A stretch of DNA of 6,185 nt from a virus (Duplodnaviria; Heunggongvirae; Uroviricota; Caudoviricetes), in IMG/VR virus record IMGVR_UViG_648276662_000013, one strand, 5' to 3'. Shown here one piece after another: positions 1-6,185 of the stretch. The notes under the pieces are model-generated. The model ran no database searches and was not told the DNA's origin. It saw nothing but the letters and a program-made list of their open reading frames with translations. How positions within the stretch are numbered: position 1 is the first letter of the stretch; the number at the start of each line of letters is the position of its first letter. The translations under genes and the position numbers were made by a program.

Positions 1-1194
1 GAGCAGATGCGTAATCTTATTACAGCATTCCCAGAAGAGTTTGAGGAAGTCCGTAAAGGGATGAGTTATGTCGATGATGCTCAAAGGGATGATTATGGCA
101 ATCTGGCGCTCAAAGCACAGGTAGCCTCATCGCTTGGTCAGGGCGCATTTGGCAGGTTCATGATGGATAATGAGCAGGAGATGCGTCGTTTAGGTATCCC
201 TCCAGAAACTATTGCGGAAATGCAGGTTAATGACCCGCAGGGCTTCCAGCATTTCGCAGGTAATCTGGCGCTGTTTTCTCTCGGTCATGAGAAGTATTTC
301 GATATCAAAGATCAAATGGAAGGTCGGGATATTGAGCGTGGCAAGTTGGCAGAGACAATCCGCAGCAATCAGGCTGGCGAAGCACTTCAGGCGAGAGGGC
401 AGGATATTAGCCGAGCAAATGCGTTAACGTCAGCATATGCACCAACAGCAGCAATGCAGAATTACAATCAGTACGCGCAAATGTTAAAGGCGGATCCAGA
501 GGGGGCGGCGGCATTTGCGGCAGCGGCTGGAATTAATACAAACGCCAAAAAATTAATGAGTGTTAGAGAAAACGATGATGGCACTGTCACAAAATACTAC
601 ACAGACGGAAGTGAAGAGCAGGGAAAACTAAACCAGCCAATATCTGGAGATGGGTTTCGTCCAATAGCTTTGCCAACAGCCCAAAAGATCATGGAAAAGT
701 CGCCAGAAGGGGCTAAAAAAGCTGCTGGATTTGCATACAGGGTTAGGGATGCTCTTGATTCAATAGATACACTGAAAGACCAGCTTAGCCCACAGCGAGT
801 GGCGATCATTAATAATGCTTTGGGTAATGGGACGCTGGCTAACTTAACGCTCAGCCCAGCAGAGCAGCAATACGTTGTTAATGCTAATGACGCAATAATG
901 GCAATACTCCGTCAGGAAACAGGGGCATCTATCCTACCAGCTGAAATGTCCAAATATTATCAAATGTATTTCCCTCAGCCTGGTGATTCCACAAAAACCA
1001 TTGATACCAAGCGCCGGAAGATGGAAAACCAGTTCAATTCGCTGAAAGCTGCTTCTGGTCGAACTTATGATGCTTTGCGGGTTATTTCAGCAGTTGACAG
1101 AGGAACTGCTTCTTCGTCGCAGACATTGCCGCAATCTGAGCAGGTATCACAGCCAGCAGCCAGCAGTAACTTTTCTTCACTATGGGGTGATTAA
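1..1194 (+). CDS. 5'-partial hypothetical protein (at least 397 aa in window), hydrophilic with no TM segment and a Ser/Gln-rich C-terminal tail; candidate phage virion/internal (DNA-ejection-type) protein, product is inference only
   Basis: Open frame runs from base 1 with no in-frame stop before the first ATG at 7, so the gene probably starts upstream of the window. Stop TAA 1192-1194 overlaps the next ATG 1194-1196 (TAATG), indicating an operon with translational coupling. ORFs 212..427(+) and 597..809(-) inside it are short shadow ORFs. Confidence 0.8.
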   Translation, partial: EQMRNLITAFPEEFEEVRKGMSYVDDAQRDDYGNLALKAQVASSLGQGAFGRFMMDNEQEMRRLGIPPETIAEMQVNDPQGFQHFAGNLALFSLGHEKYFDIKDQMEGRDIERGKLAETIRSNQAGEALQARGQDISRANALTSAYAPTAAMQNYNQYAQMLKADPEGAAAFAAAAGINTNAKKLMSVRENDDGTVTKYYTDGSEEQGKLNQPISGDGFRPIALPTAQKIMEKSPEGAKKAAGFAYRVRDALDSIDTLKDQLSPQRVAIINNALGNGTLANLTLSPAEQQYVVNANDAIMAILRQETGASILPAEMSKYYQMYFPQPGDSTKTIDTKRRKMENQFNSLKAASGRTYDALRVISAVDRGTASSSQTLPQSEQVSQPAASSNFSSLWGD

Positions 1195-3299
1195 TGGCTA
1201 AAGCATGGAAAGATGTTATCGCCTCTCCACAGTATCAGGCGTTAGCACCAGAACAAAAAGCGCAGGCTCAGGAGCAATACTTCAATGAAGTCGTGGCCCC
1301 GCAAGCCGGAGAAAGTGTAGAGCAGGCTAAGCAGGCTTTTTATGCTGCCTATCCACTACCATCAACGAATGAAATAGACCGATCCCAATCAGCAACTCAA
1401 AATATTCAACATACATCATCTGATAATTCTCTTGCGTCAGGGTATGCAAAGTTAGCTACTCAGCAAAGAGAGGGGCTTGAGCGTTCAGCAGAACAGGGAG
1501 CCAGTCTTGGGGCTGCGATGCGCGATGCTATAACAGGCGAAAGCCGAATGACTCCAGAGATGGAGAGACTGCAAAATGTCGCCTCTGCCCCAGAATTGAA
1601 CTCACTAAGCATGGATGCCCTAAAGGCTGGATGGTCTCAACTTTTCGGCTCTGACGCGTCTCAGGAAAAGATTCTTCAGGGAATGGGGGCGACATTAAGG
1701 CAGGATGAGAAGGGGAATACTATCGTTTCTCTGCCATCAGGTGATTATGCCCTGAACAAGCCGGGTTTATCACCGCAAGACCTGACCTCGTTTCTTGCTA
1801 ATGCGTTGGCGTTTACACCAGCGGGCAGGGCTGGAACGGTGCTTGGTGCCATAGGAAAATCAGCAGCTACAGATTTAGCACTACAGGGAGCCACCAGCCT
1901 TGCTGGTGGAGAAGATATTGATCCGTTACAAACGGTAATTTCTGCTGGCATTGGTGGTATTGGTAAGGGGCTGGAAAATACAGCGAGTGCGGTTTCGAGG
2001 GCTGTTCGTGGTGATATGTCGCCTGAAGCAAAGGCTGCTGTCGACTTTGCATCGGAAAGAAATCTGCCGTTAATGACCAGTGACATGCTGAAAGATAAAA
2101 CCTTTATGCAGAGTCAGGCTCAGACATTAGGCGAAAGAGTTCCTTTTTTTGGAACCGGTAAGAATCGGCTGAATCAACAACAAGCACGAGAAAATTTAGT
2201 CAGAACATTTAGCGATGGTCTGGGTGGCATTTCTGATAAACAGCTTTATGAATCTGCGACTAAAGGGCAACAAAAATTCATTGAGGCAGCAGGAAAGCGA
2301 TATAACCGCATAATTGACGCTATGGGGGATACCCCTGTCGATCTCTCAAACACGGTAAAAGCTATCGACAATCAGATTGCCGTGTTAAGCCGCCCGGGCA
2401 AATCTCAGGATAGAGCCGCGGTAAAAGTCTTGCAGCAATTTAAAGACGATATCACCAGCGGACCAAATGACCTGCGTCTGGCGAGGGAAAACAGAACCGA
2501 TCTTCGAAAGCGATTTATGGCGTCATCTGACACTGTTGATAAAGATACGCTCCAGAAAGCCAGCGATATTATCTACAAGGCATATACGGCGGATATGAAA
2601 AAAGCCGTAGCCAAAAATCTTGGAGCAGACGAAGCCATTAATATGGCAAGGGTTGATCGCTCATGGTCTAAATTCAATGACATGATGGGAAGAACGCGCG
2701 TTCAAAAGGCAATAGCCAGCGGCAAGGCCACGCCTGAGGATGTAACAAAACTCGTTTTTAGCCAAAGCCCATCAGAACGTTCTCAGCTTTACAGGCTTCT
2801 GGATGACAATGGTAGGCAAAACGCACGAGCAGCCATAGTTCAGAATGCTGTAGATAAGGCGACTGATCCGTCTGGAAATATCAGTGTTGAGAAGTTTATT
2901 AATGCGTTACACCGGAACAGGAAGCAATCAGCAACTTTCTTTAAAGGCGTACATGGAAAGGAACTGGACGGCGTTATTAAATACCTCAACGATACAAGAC
3001 ACGCGGCAAAAGCGAACGTTCAAAACTTAAATGGTCAGCAGCTTTATGGATTGTTAGTTGGTGGTGGCATCATAAACGCAGCAGTATTAGCGGGGATGCT
3101 AAAAACGGCTGCGTTTGTTGTTCCTGCTGCTGGTGCCGTAGGCGGAGCAGCGAAGGCATACGAAAGCCCTGTTATACGAAATGCCTTGTTACGTCTGGCA
3201 AATACGCCAAAAGGTAGCACAGCATATGACAGAGCGATCAGTACGGTCACACAATCGCTCACCAGAGTCGCACAGGCATCACAAAAAGAATCTCAATAA
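1194..3299 (+). CDS. 701-aa hypothetical protein: Ala/Gln-rich N-terminus, Gly/Ala-rich middle, C-terminal ~37-residue hydrophobic helical hairpin; candidate membrane-inserting virion/ejection-type protein (function not established)
   Basis: 2.1 kb ORF whose ATG overlaps the upstream stop, with a G-rich SD-like GGGGTG at 1184-1189. Hairpin LYGLLVGGGIINAAVLAGML-KT-AAFVVPAAGAVGGAA is residues 617-653, about nt 3042-3152. Stop TAA 3297-3299 is followed by a hairpin + T-run. Antisense ORFs 1745..2086, 1867..2052 and 3044..3262 are shadows. Confidence 0.85.
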   Translation: MAKAWKDVIASPQYQALAPEQKAQAQEQYFNEVVAPQAGESVEQAKQAFYAAYPLPSTNEIDRSQSATQNIQHTSSDNSLASGYAKLATQQREGLERSAEQGASLGAAMRDAITGESRMTPEMERLQNVASAPELNSLSMDALKAGWSQLFGSDASQEKILQGMGATLRQDEKGNTIVSLPSGDYALNKPGLSPQDLTSFLANALAFTPAGRAGTVLGAIGKSAATDLALQGATSLAGGEDIDPLQTVISAGIGGIGKGLENTASAVSRAVRGDMSPEAKAAVDFASERNLPLMTSDMLKDKTFMQSQAQTLGERVPFFGTGKNRLNQQQARENLVRTFSDGLGGISDKQLYESATKGQQKFIEAAGKRYNRIIDAMGDTPVDLSNTVKAIDNQIAVLSRPGKSQDRAAVKVLQQFKDDITSGPNDLRLARENRTDLRKRFMASSDTVDKDTLQKASDIIYKAYTADMKKAVAKNLGADEAINMARVDRSWSKFNDMMGRTRVQKAIASGKATPEDVTKLVFSQSPSERSQLYRLLDDNGRQNARAAIVQNAVDKATDPSGNISVEKFINALHRNRKQSATFFKGVHGKELDGVIKYLNDTRHAAKANVQNLNGQQLYGLLVGGGIINAAVLAGMLKTAAFVVPAAGAVGGAAKAYESPVIRNALLRLANTPKGSTAYDRAISTVTQSLTRVAQASQKESQ

Positions 3300-3303
3300 C
3301 TGG

Positions 3304-3326
3304 TTAGCCATGGATGGCTAATTTTT
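3304..3326 (+). terminator. Candidate intrinsic terminator of the + strand two-gene operon
   Basis: Perfect inverted repeat TTAGCCAT-GG-ATGGCTAA (3304-3321) followed by TTTTT (3322-3326), starting 5 nt after the stop of the 701-aa gene. Stem is only moderately GC-rich; it overlaps the stop of the convergent minus-strand gene. Confidence 0.5.
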
Positions 3327-3668
3327 GTTCTTTGCTCTCATCCATAGGTAAAGAAGGGAAAGAACAAGACAAAAAACAGAGAATAGATAACCTACCTCAT
3401 ATGGTGCGCCAAAAAAATTAGCTATTGATACGGGCAAAAAAGCTGAAGCGATCAAAATTGAAAGGCAAAAAATAAGCCCAGTAATATAGTTTATTAAATT
3501 CTTAAATGAGAAACGTTTTGCTTGATTTACGGTCTTAACGAACGATCGCTTAACGACGGATAAAAGCAAATAGATGGCGACAGTTGCTAATGCCCCTTTC
3601 CACCAGTCTGGATATAGTTTTGCGACAATCAGACCAAGTAAAACCATGATGACAGCCTGAGCATTCAC
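3318..3668 (-). CDS. Small polytopic membrane protein (about 116 aa from the GTG start, 4 predicted TM helices); candidate superinfection-exclusion/immunity-type accessory protein
   Basis: ORF track gives 3318..3737 (139 aa) from an ATG with no SD. An in-frame GTG at 3666-3668 is preceded by GGGAGG (complement of 3675-3680) with a 6-nt spacer, so it is the more likely start. Four hydrophobic stretches: AQAVIMVLLGLIVAKLY, ALATVAIYLLLSVV, LINYITGLIFCLSILIASAFLPV, VGYLFSVFCLVLSLLYLWM. The 3' two-thirds (about 3320-3560) is visibly AT-rich versus flanks (not computed). A 420-nt stop-free frame in AT-rich DNA is unlikely by chance. Confidence 0.6.
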   Translation of the reverse strand: MNAQAVIMVLLGLIVAKLYPDWWKGALATVAIYLLLSVVKRSFVKTVNQAKRFSFKNLINYITGLIFCLSILIASAFLPVSIANFFGAPYEVGYLFSVFCLVLSLLYLWMRAKNKN

Positions 3669-3783
3669 ACCAACCCTCCCTTTAGCTTTGTTTAGAATGG
3701 CAATCATCATATATCCAAGACATGGCATTTGGTACATAGCTTGGGTCGGGATTTCAAATCCGCTCCCAGTTGATGGGGCCGTT

Positions 3784-3794
3784 ACAGTACGCGC
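3784..3794. repeat. Degenerate copy (core only) of the (CG)n-core motif: ACAGTACGCGC
   Basis: Matches the core of the 3854-3877 motif, same orientation. Confidence 0.35.
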
Positions 3795-3853
3795 ATATCC
3801 GCTTTATGTGAAACAGGAAGATTTTTCTGATATCACTGCCACAGCAAAACACC

Positions 3854-3877
3854 AATTTCGTGACCAGTACGCGCGCG
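3854..3877. repeat. Copy of a ~24-bp motif AATTTCGTGACCAGTACGCGCGCG (alternating purine-pyrimidine CG core)
   Basis: Near-identical to copies at 4141-4163 and 5772-5796. Lies in non-coding DNA. Confidence 0.7.
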
Positions 3878-3885
3878 AGGGGTAT

Positions 3886-3909
3886 CAGTTGCAAAATTTT
3901 TTGCAACTG
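3886..3909. promoter_or_regulatory. Perfect 24-bp palindrome CAGTTGCAAAA-TT-TTTTGCAACTG; candidate dimeric-protein operator or cruciform/hairpin
   Basis: 11-bp arms are exact reverse complements with a 2-bp centre. Sits exactly between motif copies at 3854-3877 and 3915-3930. No U-tract after the stem, so not a canonical terminator. Confidence 0.5.
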
Positions 3910-3914
3910 CGTCC

Positions 3915-3930
3915 GACCAGTACGCACACG
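3915..3930. repeat. Partial copy of the (CG)n-core motif: GACCAGTACGCACACG
   Basis: Core GACCAGTACGC identical to the 3863-3873 part of the full copy; about 52 bp downstream of it, same orientation. Confidence 0.5.
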
Positions 3931-4140
3931 ATGGCGGGGAGCACCATAAAACTGTTCTCTACATAAGACAGAGTGGTGGTGATGTGTTGATTATCGGCGT
4001 ATATGCGCACAGGACGCGCTATGACGATGTTTTATGCGGGTACACTAATCACATGTATCTGGTGTGATAAATCGCGTTACATGACCTCTCATGTTGTGCT
4101 GGTGGTTATCACGACTTTCTGAATCTGGCCTTTGCCTGAT

Positions 4141-4163
4141 ATTTTGCGACAAGTACGCGCGCG
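4141..4163. repeat. Copy of the ~24-bp motif: ATTTTGCGACAAGTACGCGCGCG
   Basis: AAGTACGCGCGCG core plus TTT-GCGAC 5' part, same orientation as other copies. Lies about 30 bp beyond the 3' end of the minus-strand 73-aa gene. Confidence 0.7.
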
Positions 4164-4191
4164 TAGCATCGACAGCATACACATTGGATAT

Positions 4192-4413
4192 TCATTTTGT
4201 GACCAATGCGATAAGTAGCGGGATAAGAATTGATAAAATCAACAGGACGATGATCCACTTTTGATTTTCACTGGCCTTATCTCTATTTTCATCAATCTTA
4301 TCAATAATTCGACGCTCCAAGCCGTGCATATCACCGCGAATGGCAATCATCTCATTGCGAACATCCGAGAAGTGGTTGGCTTGATGTTCAATGTGTGGCG
4401 TTCTGCCTTTCAT
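4192..4413 (-). CDS. 73-aa tail-anchored membrane protein (charged N-terminal ~50 residues, single C-terminal TM WIIVLLILSILIPLLIALV); XhlA-like by recall, or possibly a small holin/toxin-like membrane effector
   Basis: Strong SD GGTGAGGA (complement of about 4422-4429) 6-7 nt upstream of ATG (complement of 4411-4413). Lies 79 bp downstream of, and co-oriented with, the RHH gene. Coiled-coil N-terminus, conserved Trp before a single C-terminal TM resembles the XhlA family (Pfam PF10779) from memory; not verified. Confidence 0.7.
   Translation of the reverse strand: MKGRTPHIEHQANHFSDVRNEMIAIRGDMHGLERRIIDKIDENRDKASENQKWIIVLLILSILIPLLIALVTK
4194..4210. repeat. Degenerate copy of the motif 5' half: ATTTTGTGACCAATGCG
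   Basis: TTTTGTGACCA matches the 5' half of the full motif. About 53 bp downstream of the 4141 copy, mirroring the ~52-bp spacing of the 3854/3915 pair. Overlaps the stop codon of the 73-aa gene. Confidence 0.35.
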
Positions 4414-4492: not shown

Positions 4493-4948
4493 TTATACGC
4501 TGACCTTACAATCAATCACCGCTTTTAACTTTTCAGCATTGCTTCCCTGACGCTTCCACGCGCTGTAAATATCTTTATCCCACGCTTTACCAGCTTTTGT
4601 TTGATAGCCTGCTTCATTGATCCGTTCAGCTATCACACGCCCATTATCAAATCCCTGTTGGATGGTATCGGCAATGATCTTTATAACTGCCGTTTCGTTA
4701 TATGGCTTTGGTGGGATGTTCGGCTTTCCGGCAATAAGCGACGCAGCGGCTTTTTCCATGCGCTCCACCAGCCCAAGCATTCGTGAATCAATAGACTTTT
4801 CCGGCTGTCCCAGCTTCATGCGAATCGCATCAACAAGCCAGGAGGTTTTATCCCCTCCAGAAGCGAGAACAGACCGATTAAACTCATCCTGCAATTCAGA
4901 TGGGATGCGGAACGCGACCAGATTAGATTTGCTCATTGCAAAGACCAT
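4493..4948 (-). CDS. Ribbon-helix-helix (CopG/Arc/MetJ-type) DNA-binding protein with an uncharacterised ~100-aa C-terminal domain; candidate repressor/regulator of the divergent control region
   Basis: N-terminal NLVAFRIPSELQDEFNRSVLASGGDKTSWLVDAIRMKL fits the RHH pattern (beta-strand with alternating hydrophobics, helix A, G-x-T/S turn, helix B). Neither ATG (complement of 4946-4948 or 4934-4936) has a clear SD, so the start is uncertain and could be leaderless. Opposite-strand ORFs 4601..4786 and 4617..5021 are Ser/Cys-rich shadows. Confidence 0.75.
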   Translation of the reverse strand: MVFAMSKSNLVAFRIPSELQDEFNRSVLASGGDKTSWLVDAIRMKLGQPEKSIDSRMLGLVERMEKAAASLIAGKPNIPPKPYNETAVIKIIADTIQQGFDNGRVIAERINEAGYQTKAGKAWDKDIYSAWKRQGSNAEKLKAVIDCKVSV

Positions 4949-5207: not shown

Positions 5208-5495
5208 ATGATAAGGGACAGGAAAGCTGAAGAGCTGGAGTCAAAAGGGCTATACCGGAGAGCTGCCGCACGATGGGCAGAAGTCATGATGCTGGCAGAT
5301 GGCGATAAAGAACGTGAACATGCAGCAAAAAGACGCTCTGAATGTATCCGTAAGGCGGCACGCCCACCAGCAACTACAGACAGATTCGGAGATTTAAGAC
5401 AGGCAGTTAAGCGGACTCATTCGGCTCTTGGTATGGATGAGGAAGCGAGAGGGTACTTCAGGCGTTATCGCGATAAAGATTGCCAGAGACAGTAA
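5208..5495 (+). CDS. 95-aa basic, helix-rich small regulator; PerC/Pch-family-like transcriptional activator (by recall, unverified)
   Basis: ATG with good SD. N-terminal KAEELESKGLYRRAAARWAEVM resembles, from memory, the conserved core of PerC-family activators (Pfam PF06069). Divergently arranged from the RHH gene across a repeat-rich control region. Confidence 0.7.
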   Translation: MIRDRKAEELESKGLYRRAAARWAEVMMLADGDKEREHAAKRRSECIRKAARPPATTDRFGDLRQAVKRTHSALGMDEEARGYFRRYRDKDCQRQ

Positions 5496-6052: not shown

Positions 6053-6185
6053 TTCCCCGCAACTTCAATTCTGTTTTGCGTGCCTGCTCCAGATTTTGCG
6101 ATGTTTTTTTGCCCAGCACACTGAGAACGTGAGATACTCACAACTGTATATAAATGGGTCTTCCCCGATCATGGTGGGAAGACTC

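Follow-up and report, generated by a model that had tools for sequence, protein, structure and literature searches.

Small inner-membrane proteins of a resident phage, such as T4 Imm and HK97 gp15, stop DNA translocation across the inner membrane. Here, we analyzed a gene for a predicted inner-membrane protein of 116 amino acids (aa) and four transmembrane (TM) helices, hereafter the four-helix protein, on a 6,185-nucleotide (nt) stretch of Caudoviricetes DNA (IMG/VR record IMGVR_UViG_648276662_000013), which we call the window. Imm and gp15 belong to other phage groups and genomic contexts, and no such match to the four-helix protein was found in the Pfam and PHROG scans. The nearest described counterpart is SieA, whose types A and B block DNA entry and are the only cargo of tested function from the slot beside gene 16 of P22-like phages (PMC10883804). 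The SieA family (PHROG 7745, Pfam PF26849) has a conserved C-terminal cytoplasmic motif, FxRYPxEAxxFNK, and its types A, B, and C are only about 25% identical. Mutations that escape SieA fall in the C-terminal parts of gp16 and gp20, and 85 bp upstream of P22 sieA are enough for functional expression (Leavitt et al. 2024, PMC10883804).

The region between genes 16 and 9 has been described as the "ant moron", a hyper-variable, independently expressed region in which unnamed "unique" genes were already drawn, including those of the UTI-1 and APEC-1 prophages (Villafane et al. 2008, PMC2629481). The membrane gene studied here lies in the same region; however, its family, start, topology, and shared leader were not defined in that study, and the moron of the window is detached from tailspike and head genes, within an integrase/primase island.

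The four-helix gene in the slot beside gene 16

By position, orientation, and leader, the four-helix gene is one cassette type of the "sieA slot", directly after gene 16 and convergent with it. Since it shares the slot and the expression leader of sieA and has no detectable relation to SieA types A and B, its product is, by analogy, probably an unrelated alternative exclusion protein. Our best guess, held at about even confidence, is superinfection exclusion at the DNA-entry step. The four-helix protein would be made from the resident element, like SieA, and inserted in the inner membrane, and incoming P22-like phages would be kept from completing the gp20/gp16 DNA-delivery conduit.

An earlier, sequence-only reading of the window had described the gene as converging on a putative ejection-protein gene, and the PHROG 770 match of the 701-aa neighbor, which is of the P22 gp16 type, bore this out. 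The stop of the membrane open reading frame (ORF; 3318-3320) lies 18 nt from that of the 701-aa gene, and the 701-aa protein is about 29% identical to P22 gp16 over the best 482-residue alignment. Wherever the flanks of a family member were readable, the gene converges on a gene-16 homologue, 17-25 nt from its stop. The family comprises two subtypes. Type 1 is always found with the 701-aa gp16 type, which adjoins the membrane gene in every type-1 locus, and type 2 occurs with at least three other gp16 types, including the P22-like type of 609 aa. In prophage relatives, the gene lies between genes 16 and 9, convergent with gene 16; the order in these complete or decayed P22-like prophages is coat ... 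7, 20, 16, membrane gene (opposite strand), mnt/arc/ant, and tailspike. Gene 9 and the head genes are absent from the window because the element is an island. The genes of P22 SieA (type A) and HS1 SieA (type B) occupy the same slot, also convergent with gene 16, with a gap of 22 nt in P22. The core of the hairpin between the convergent stops, GCC(A/G)TCCNTGGC, is conserved in family loci and beside P22 sieA. Thus, the analogy to sieA loci offered by the sequence-only reading was exact for the position (orientation, gap of about 20 nt, hairpin, and, in many prophages, leader) and failed for the host element, which is not a P22-like phage.

In P22 (L009 in our locus numbering, 4832-4865), the 34 nt before and including the sieA start are TGGTATCCTGCACAAAACTAAGGAGGTTGGTGTG. 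An identical leader occurs in the type-2 locus L032 of Salmonella (6069-6102), where the identity to P22 stops at the GTG. One or two leader mismatches were found in ten other family loci (type-1 L020-L027 and L030; type-2 L033), and the leader of HS1 sieA type B, CGGTGTTCTGCTCAAAACTAAGGAG, is related. In these family loci, the leader ending ...CAAAACTAAGGAGGTTGGTGTG directly precedes the start codon; the copy in the window (CAAAGCTAAAGGGAGGGTTGGTGTG) is diverged but alignable. Altogether, the conserved leader, ribosome-binding site (RBS), and GTG (CAAAACTAAGGAGGTTGGYGTG) were present in L009, L032, L020-L027, L030, L034 (5381-5414), and at least 120 IMG/VR loci, the latter from a scan of IMG/VR with a 22-nt leader pattern.

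Among the matches listed, at least 12 mutually unrelated families of cargo follow the leader, and TM segments or signal peptides occur in nearly all of them; most of these cargoes lie 9-25 nt from a convergent gene 16. The commonest is a 129-aa signal-peptide protein (about 42 loci, including MK(Q/K/R)FL...MFLFI start variants); SieA type A was counted at 8 loci and four-helix type 1 at 6. The other listed cargoes are three families that combine an N-terminal TM segment with a coiled coil, two small proteins with two TM segments each, relatives of phage N7 ORF14, two further signal-peptide proteins, a TM protein of 149 aa, and one soluble protein of 140 aa. With at least 12 unrelated cargoes behind one leader, the slot is a general moron hotspot. 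The leader pattern also offers a cheap probe for harvesting candidate envelope-level exclusion genes from prophages.

Three further observations concern the slot. The 129-aa cargo (L034/L035, 5412-5801, and many IMG/VR loci) starts with the signal peptide VKQFLAAMFLFISFGATA, followed by ECWVVGDMRG..., and in L034 it lies upstream of a type-2 four-helix gene, so that two cassettes can occupy the slot in tandem. For P22 sieA, whose start has been called uncertain (PMC10883804), the shared leader supports the GTG start, which gives 164 aa. Additionally, ORF14 of Escherichia phage N7 (L031, 5902-6222) occupies the same slot in the same orientation, behind a like AAGGAG leader, and also encodes a small membrane protein, but the two are unrelated: ORF14 has 106 aa and a single N-terminal TM segment instead of four helices. 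The gp16 of N7 is the closest to that of the window among sequenced phages (67% identity).

Exclusion weighed against other functions

A block exchange with sister islands is consistent with coupling between the four-helix gene and the ejection genes. The match of the window to the sister islands L011, L028, and L029 is limited to 1-326 and to positions from 3605 upward; between these junctions, the sister islands have another gp16 type and a membrane protein of type 2. The junctions fall inside gene 20 after the conserved N-terminal part and inside the membrane gene after its KLYP motif. From this match pattern, the C-terminal part of gp20, gp16, and codons 22-116 of the membrane gene were swapped as one block for unrelated versions, so that the variable part of the gene moved together with gp16 and the C-terminal part of gp20.

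Several points weigh against exclusion. The linkage to gp16 may be a matter of adjacency alone, and the block exchange represents one event. Many unrelated cargoes share the slot, and function is thus not fixed by position alone. In the window, the leader is diverged relative to that of sieA, and the only promoter candidate is weak. The four-helix protein, with 116 aa, is smaller than SieA (164-212 aa), and BLASTP against SieA gave E = 0.99. By hhalign, the probability was 2% (alignment A3) and 0.1% (alignment A6) with the SieA type A profile, 0.1% with HS1 type B, and 5% for type 2 of the family with an A+B profile. The motif FxRYPxEAxxFNK, which reads FGRYPGEANGFNK in P22 SieA and FNRYPGEARKFNK in HS1 SieA, is absent from the four-helix ORF, which ends ...LLYLWMRAKNKN. 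Searches of Pfam, PHROGs, PADLOC, NCBIfam, PDB, and BFVD returned only noise, and a literature search by protein accession found no report of expression or phenotype for any family member. The SieA comparisons cover types A and B and leave out type C; the Pfam copy searched lacked the SieA (PF26849) and gp16 (PF26808) models, and the SieA profiles for hhalign were built by hand.

Within this scope, the four-helix protein is not a detectable homologue of SieA types A and B. That it is nonetheless a true but highly divergent homologue, a "type D" that drifted past detection, seems quite improbable to us. The types already recognized are themselves only distantly alike (PMC10883804), slot, orientation, leader, GTG start, and 3' hairpin are all common to both genes, and both products are small polytopic inner-membrane proteins (by prediction for the four-helix protein). 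However, tblastn linked SieA type A to type B at E = 1e-19 as a positive control and joined neither to the four-helix family, and P22 SieA matched PHROG 7745 at 9e-109, which the four-helix ORF did not. In addition to the low hhalign values and the missing motif, the four helices are tightly spaced, whereas SieA has three TM segments and a cytoplasmic loop of about 50 residues, and the identity between P22 and L032 ends exactly at the GTG. A resemblance of about 62% over 47 nt between the first codons of P22 sieA and the four-helix gene (MAFFT) was rejected, as it came without statistics and without significant protein similarity by hhalign or BLAST.

The main rival explanation is that the four-helix protein is an envelope protein with another lysogenic-conversion or defence role, and that it has only the expression slot in common with sieA. 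It could then be, for example, an abortive-infection membrane effector, or serve in the exclusion of phages that are not P22-like, in protection against a toxin or bacteriocin, or, given the island, in helper-phage interference. We regard this as possible, if somewhat doubtful. The variety of cargoes behind the same leader, periplasmic and soluble proteins among them, speaks for it, as do the lack of similarity to SieA types A and B by hhalign and the neighboring slot genes in relatives, which include a YafO toxin, a Clp protease, a peptidase S9, and DUF805. On the other hand, the link of the four-helix family to gene 16 holds strictly at all loci, even in islands that keep genes 20 and 16 alone; none of the 36 relevant loci examined contains both SieA and the four-helix family; and the blocking of DNA entry by SieA types A and B is the sole precedent from the slot (PMC10883804).

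If exclusion at DNA entry is the true function, a smaller and unrelated four-helix protein would give a comparative handle on what is needed at the inner membrane to block podovirus DNA entry. The type-1 gene is carried by 228 of 5426 complete E. coli genomes (about 4%) and could alter their susceptibility to P22-like phages.

Reading frame, protein family, and base composition

The coordinates of the features in the window are given in Table 1. On conservation grounds, 3318..3668 on the minus strand is a real, conserved gene. The ORF list gave 3318..3737 (139 aa from the ATG at 3737), and the sequence-only reading had argued that this start is misplaced and that the GTG at 3666-3668, behind a GGGAGG box, is correct. 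The results agree. Homology among 20 loci starts at the RBS and GTG, the frame is intact in 20 of 20, and the start codon and RBS keep their position across the eight upstream contexts of these loci. When the DNA of an E. coli island, an E. coli prophage, Yersinia, and Edwardsiella was aligned, near-identity downstream of the GTG gave way to no similarity about 20 nt upstream of it. In L005, L020-23, and L026-27, no in-frame ATG, GTG, or TTG was found between the family GTG and the preceding stop, and the next downstream ATG is ATA in L006. An ATG replaces the GTG at the equivalent position in L036 and L037, and relatives at 37-39% identity (Serratia, Pluralibacter, and metagenomes) begin MN(G/A/Y)Q at the same residue. 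A GGAGG or GGGAGG box was found at the same spacing in nearly all family loci examined, with a weaker Shine-Dalgarno sequence in L037 (GAGGGAAG); no purine-rich box precedes the ATG at 3737. The contexts that offer no other in-frame start, together with the constant GTG and RBS, indicate that the GTG at 3668-3666 is the true start.

The in-frame extension upstream of the GTG is most likely an untranslated leader. The upstream open frame spans 45 codons in the island type and is not kept elsewhere, and by our estimate a frame stays open for 23 codons by chance in about one third of cases. Annotation of the start is inconsistent, as the differing calls of the Prokaryotic Genome Annotation Pipeline (PGAP) show: the PGAP/RefSeq product here has 129 aa (start 3707), and that of an avian pathogenic E. 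coli (APEC) strain has 109 aa (the Met at residue 8 of the 116-aa form). RefSeq thus mis-starts the membrane gene in three different ways. A standard promoter scan found no site upstream of the membrane ORF; the candidate promoter in Table 1, which scored 8/12 in our permissive scan, is putative.

Table 1. Features of the 6,185-nt window, with strand, description, and basis.
Feature	Position	Strand	Description and basis
Membrane-protein coding sequence	3318..3668	(-)	116 aa; GTG start 3668-3666, TAA stop 3320-3318; homology and frame
Leader TGCCATTCTAAACAAAGCTAAAGGGAGGGTTGGT	3669..3702	(-)	Diverged copy of P22 sieA leader TGGTATCCTGCACAAAACTAAGGAGGTTGGT; alignment
Shine-Dalgarno GGGAGGG	3674..3680	(-)	5 nt upstream of GTG; read from sequence
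In-frame upstream extension	3669..3737	(-)	ATGs at 3737, 3728, 3710, 3707; sequence unrelated in other contexts
Candidate sigma-70-like promoter, weak	3706..3735	(-)	-35 GTACCA 3735-3730, 18-nt spacer, -10 TATGAT 3711-3706
TM1, ends in KLYP	3612..3659	(-)	Residues 4-19; hydropathy; AlphaFold helix 3-18
TM2, then basic loop KRSFVKTVNQAKRFSFK	3546..3596	(-)	About residues 25-41; hydropathy, positive-inside; AlphaFold helix 22-50
TM3, with invariant P79	3417..3494	(-)	About residues 59-84; hydropathy, alignment, AlphaFold helix 55-85
TM4, then basic C-terminus MRAKNKN	3339..3395	(-)	About residues 92-110; hydropathy; AlphaFold helix 90-115
Hairpin GGTTAGCCATGGATGGCTAATT between convergent stops	3302..3323	.	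9 bp, T-run on + strand; terminator-like scan
gp16-type DNA ejection protein gene, 701 aa	1194..3299	(+)	PHROG 770 "DNA transfer protein"; convergent neighbor
gp20-type ejection protein gene, C-terminal 395 codons	7..1194	(+)	Pfam Inj_translocase, PHROG 917; start upstream of window
Exchanged block	327..3604	.	gp20 C-terminal two-thirds, all gp16, codons 22-116 of membrane gene
Gene-free region	3738..4191	.	3738-4172 conserved, 94-98% over aligned blocks, in island-type loci with either subtype
orf73	4192-4413	(-)	Small, C-terminal TM anchor; PHROG 6324, function-unknown family
orf151	4493-4948	(-)	N-terminus like ribbon-helix-helix (Arc/Mnt-like), our reading; weak PHROG 30270 match, residues 5-49
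PerC-family transcriptional activator gene	5208-5495	(+)	Pfam PerC, E = 2.5e-33; island end beside yicG

The four TM segments proposed from the sequence were recovered by both methods used. The Kyte-Doolittle profile (19 residues) peaked at 1.95, 1.72, 2.47, and 2.10, and an AlphaFold model from 18 diverse sequences contained four helices with a mean predicted local distance difference test (pLDDT) score of 72.8; an earlier model from 7 sequences had reached 58. Of the 11 K/R residues, nine fall on the predicted cytoplasmic side, in the tail MRAKNKN and in the TM2-TM3 loop KRSFVKTVNQAKRFSFK, and both termini are accordingly predicted to be cytoplasmic. The topology is probably N-in/C-in with four TM helices, and the invariant KLYP(D)WW motif is predicted at the periplasmic end of TM1. 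A Foldseek search of the model against BFVD gave nothing below E = 0.97, and a profile search of PDB gave generic TM noise only.

An exhaustive profile search of 1.84 billion representatives recovered only 7 clusters, and a word-indexed profile search added others, including the second subtype. Type 2 has the pattern IPVGIAYxIDxFYPSxTERW...FHWCFEKIN and is linked to type 1 by hhalign at 95.9% probability. All members share the N-terminus MxxQx(I/V)IIxLLGLIVAKLYP, and K17, L18, Y19, P20, and P79 are invariant across all subtypes in the alignment. This small Enterobacterales family is old and reaches at least seven genera (Escherichia, Salmonella, Yersinia, Edwardsiella, Citrobacter, Serratia, and Pluralibacter). 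The hidden Markov models of known anti-phage defence in PADLOC-DB 2.0 gave no family match up to an E of 1. When the INPHARED phages were searched by DNA and by tblastn with the ORF and the sequence around it, nothing matched, so no sequenced phage there carries the gene, and the literature search found no paper describing the four-helix family. A single dubious Bacteriovoracaceae match in the species-representative genomes was set aside.

The gene is AT-rich relative to its neighbors, as the sequence-only reading had stated. The guanine-cytosine (GC) content of the 351-nt coding part is 0.373; that of gp16 is 0.474, and the window as a whole has 0.459. The coding part is among the lowest 48 of 5835 sliding 351-nt windows, all of which overlap the membrane gene. 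At 3301-3600, GC drops to 0.345-0.365, compared with 0.44-0.52 in the flanks. The same reading took this composition as typical of a recently acquired moron, and that claim did not hold. When the 113 usable codons were re-encoded with the codon usage of the neighbors gp20 and gp16, the expected GC was 0.391 +/- 0.016 against an observed 0.369, and 10.6% of simulations were as low (p about 0.11). At third codon positions, the expected GC was 0.401 +/- 0.044 against an observed 0.336, with 7.9% of simulations as low. The dip arises mainly because a hydrophobic protein has T-rich second codon positions; it is largely due to amino-acid content and gives no signal of foreign origin. Like dips occur in P22 sieA (0.337, against 0.499 for gene 16) and HS1 sieA type B (0.363 against 0.471). 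The spread of the family over its genera also speaks against a recent acquisition.

That the ORF is not a functional gene at all, being a chance ORF or a decaying, recently acquired AT-rich insert, we consider very improbable. The GC minimum of the window, the inconsistent PGAP starts, and the frameshifted or truncated variants in some genomes (P0017-P0019) could be read in this way. However, the ratio of nonsynonymous to synonymous substitution rates is 0.11-0.47 among 8 alleles, by which the gene is under purifying selection, and the frame is kept down to 37% identity. The RBS and start are invariant, the composition is accounted for by amino-acid content, and the gene is intact in decayed prophages whose gene 16 is truncated by IS3.

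The island carrying the gene

At 99% identity, the window corresponds to an island of about 16.5 kb that lies between yicC and yicG in E. coli CH4794 (L001/L003). The island order is integrase, AlpA-like helix-turn-helix protein, AntA/B, Ash, DUF5906 primase, gp20 (488 aa when complete, in L001), gp16, the membrane gene, two small minus-strand genes, and PerC. No similarity to or remnant of gp7, gp14, gp26, or gp10 was found in the island, which is without coat or portal. A 57-aa gene before gp20 was considered as a gp7 remnant and rejected, as it has no gp7 similarity. By its gene content, the host element is a satellite-like integrase-AlpA-primase island, not a P22-like prophage. An Edwardsiella island (L004) with a different primase and a single-stranded DNA-binding protein carries the same trio of gene 20, gene 16, and slot gene. 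The trio-carrying islands L001/L003, L004, and L037 have genes 20 and 16 and the slot gene intact and no other virion gene.

P22-like phages could have satellites in these islands, which would then supply ejection proteins of their own; a literature search for satellites with ejection proteins found nothing. A broader reading, which we think unlikely, would make the slot after gene 16 a hotspot of DNA-entry defence and the four-helix protein a new exclusion class, with the islands as possible satellites. One leader, RBS, and GTG would serve a dozen or more unrelated envelope proteins. The invariant TM1/KLYP module would act as an anchor, and the variable body of three helices would be transferred together with gp16 and the C-terminal domain of gp20, the regions that SieA targets. 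The trio would have been captured by integrase/AlpA/primase islands without any other virion gene, and, as satellites, the islands would re-equip helper virions with their own ejection proteins and block the entry of competitors.

The remaining features lie upstream of the four-helix gene. The gene-free region at 3738-4191 contains 3-5 irregularly spaced copies of the repeat GAC(C/A)AGTACGC(G/A)C(G/A)CG (3862, 3915, and 4148, with related 10-mers at 3785 and 4010) and a perfect palindrome, CAGTTGCAAAA-TT-TTTTGCAACTG, at 3886-3909. The repeats and palindrome look like iterons or operators. This region had no phage DNA match in INPHARED, and no Rfam match was found anywhere in the window. The orf151 gene is possibly an island remnant of immI regulators. 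At the island end lies the PerC-family gene; PerC/Pch homologues regulate the locus of enterocyte effacement (LEE) in pathogenic E. coli.

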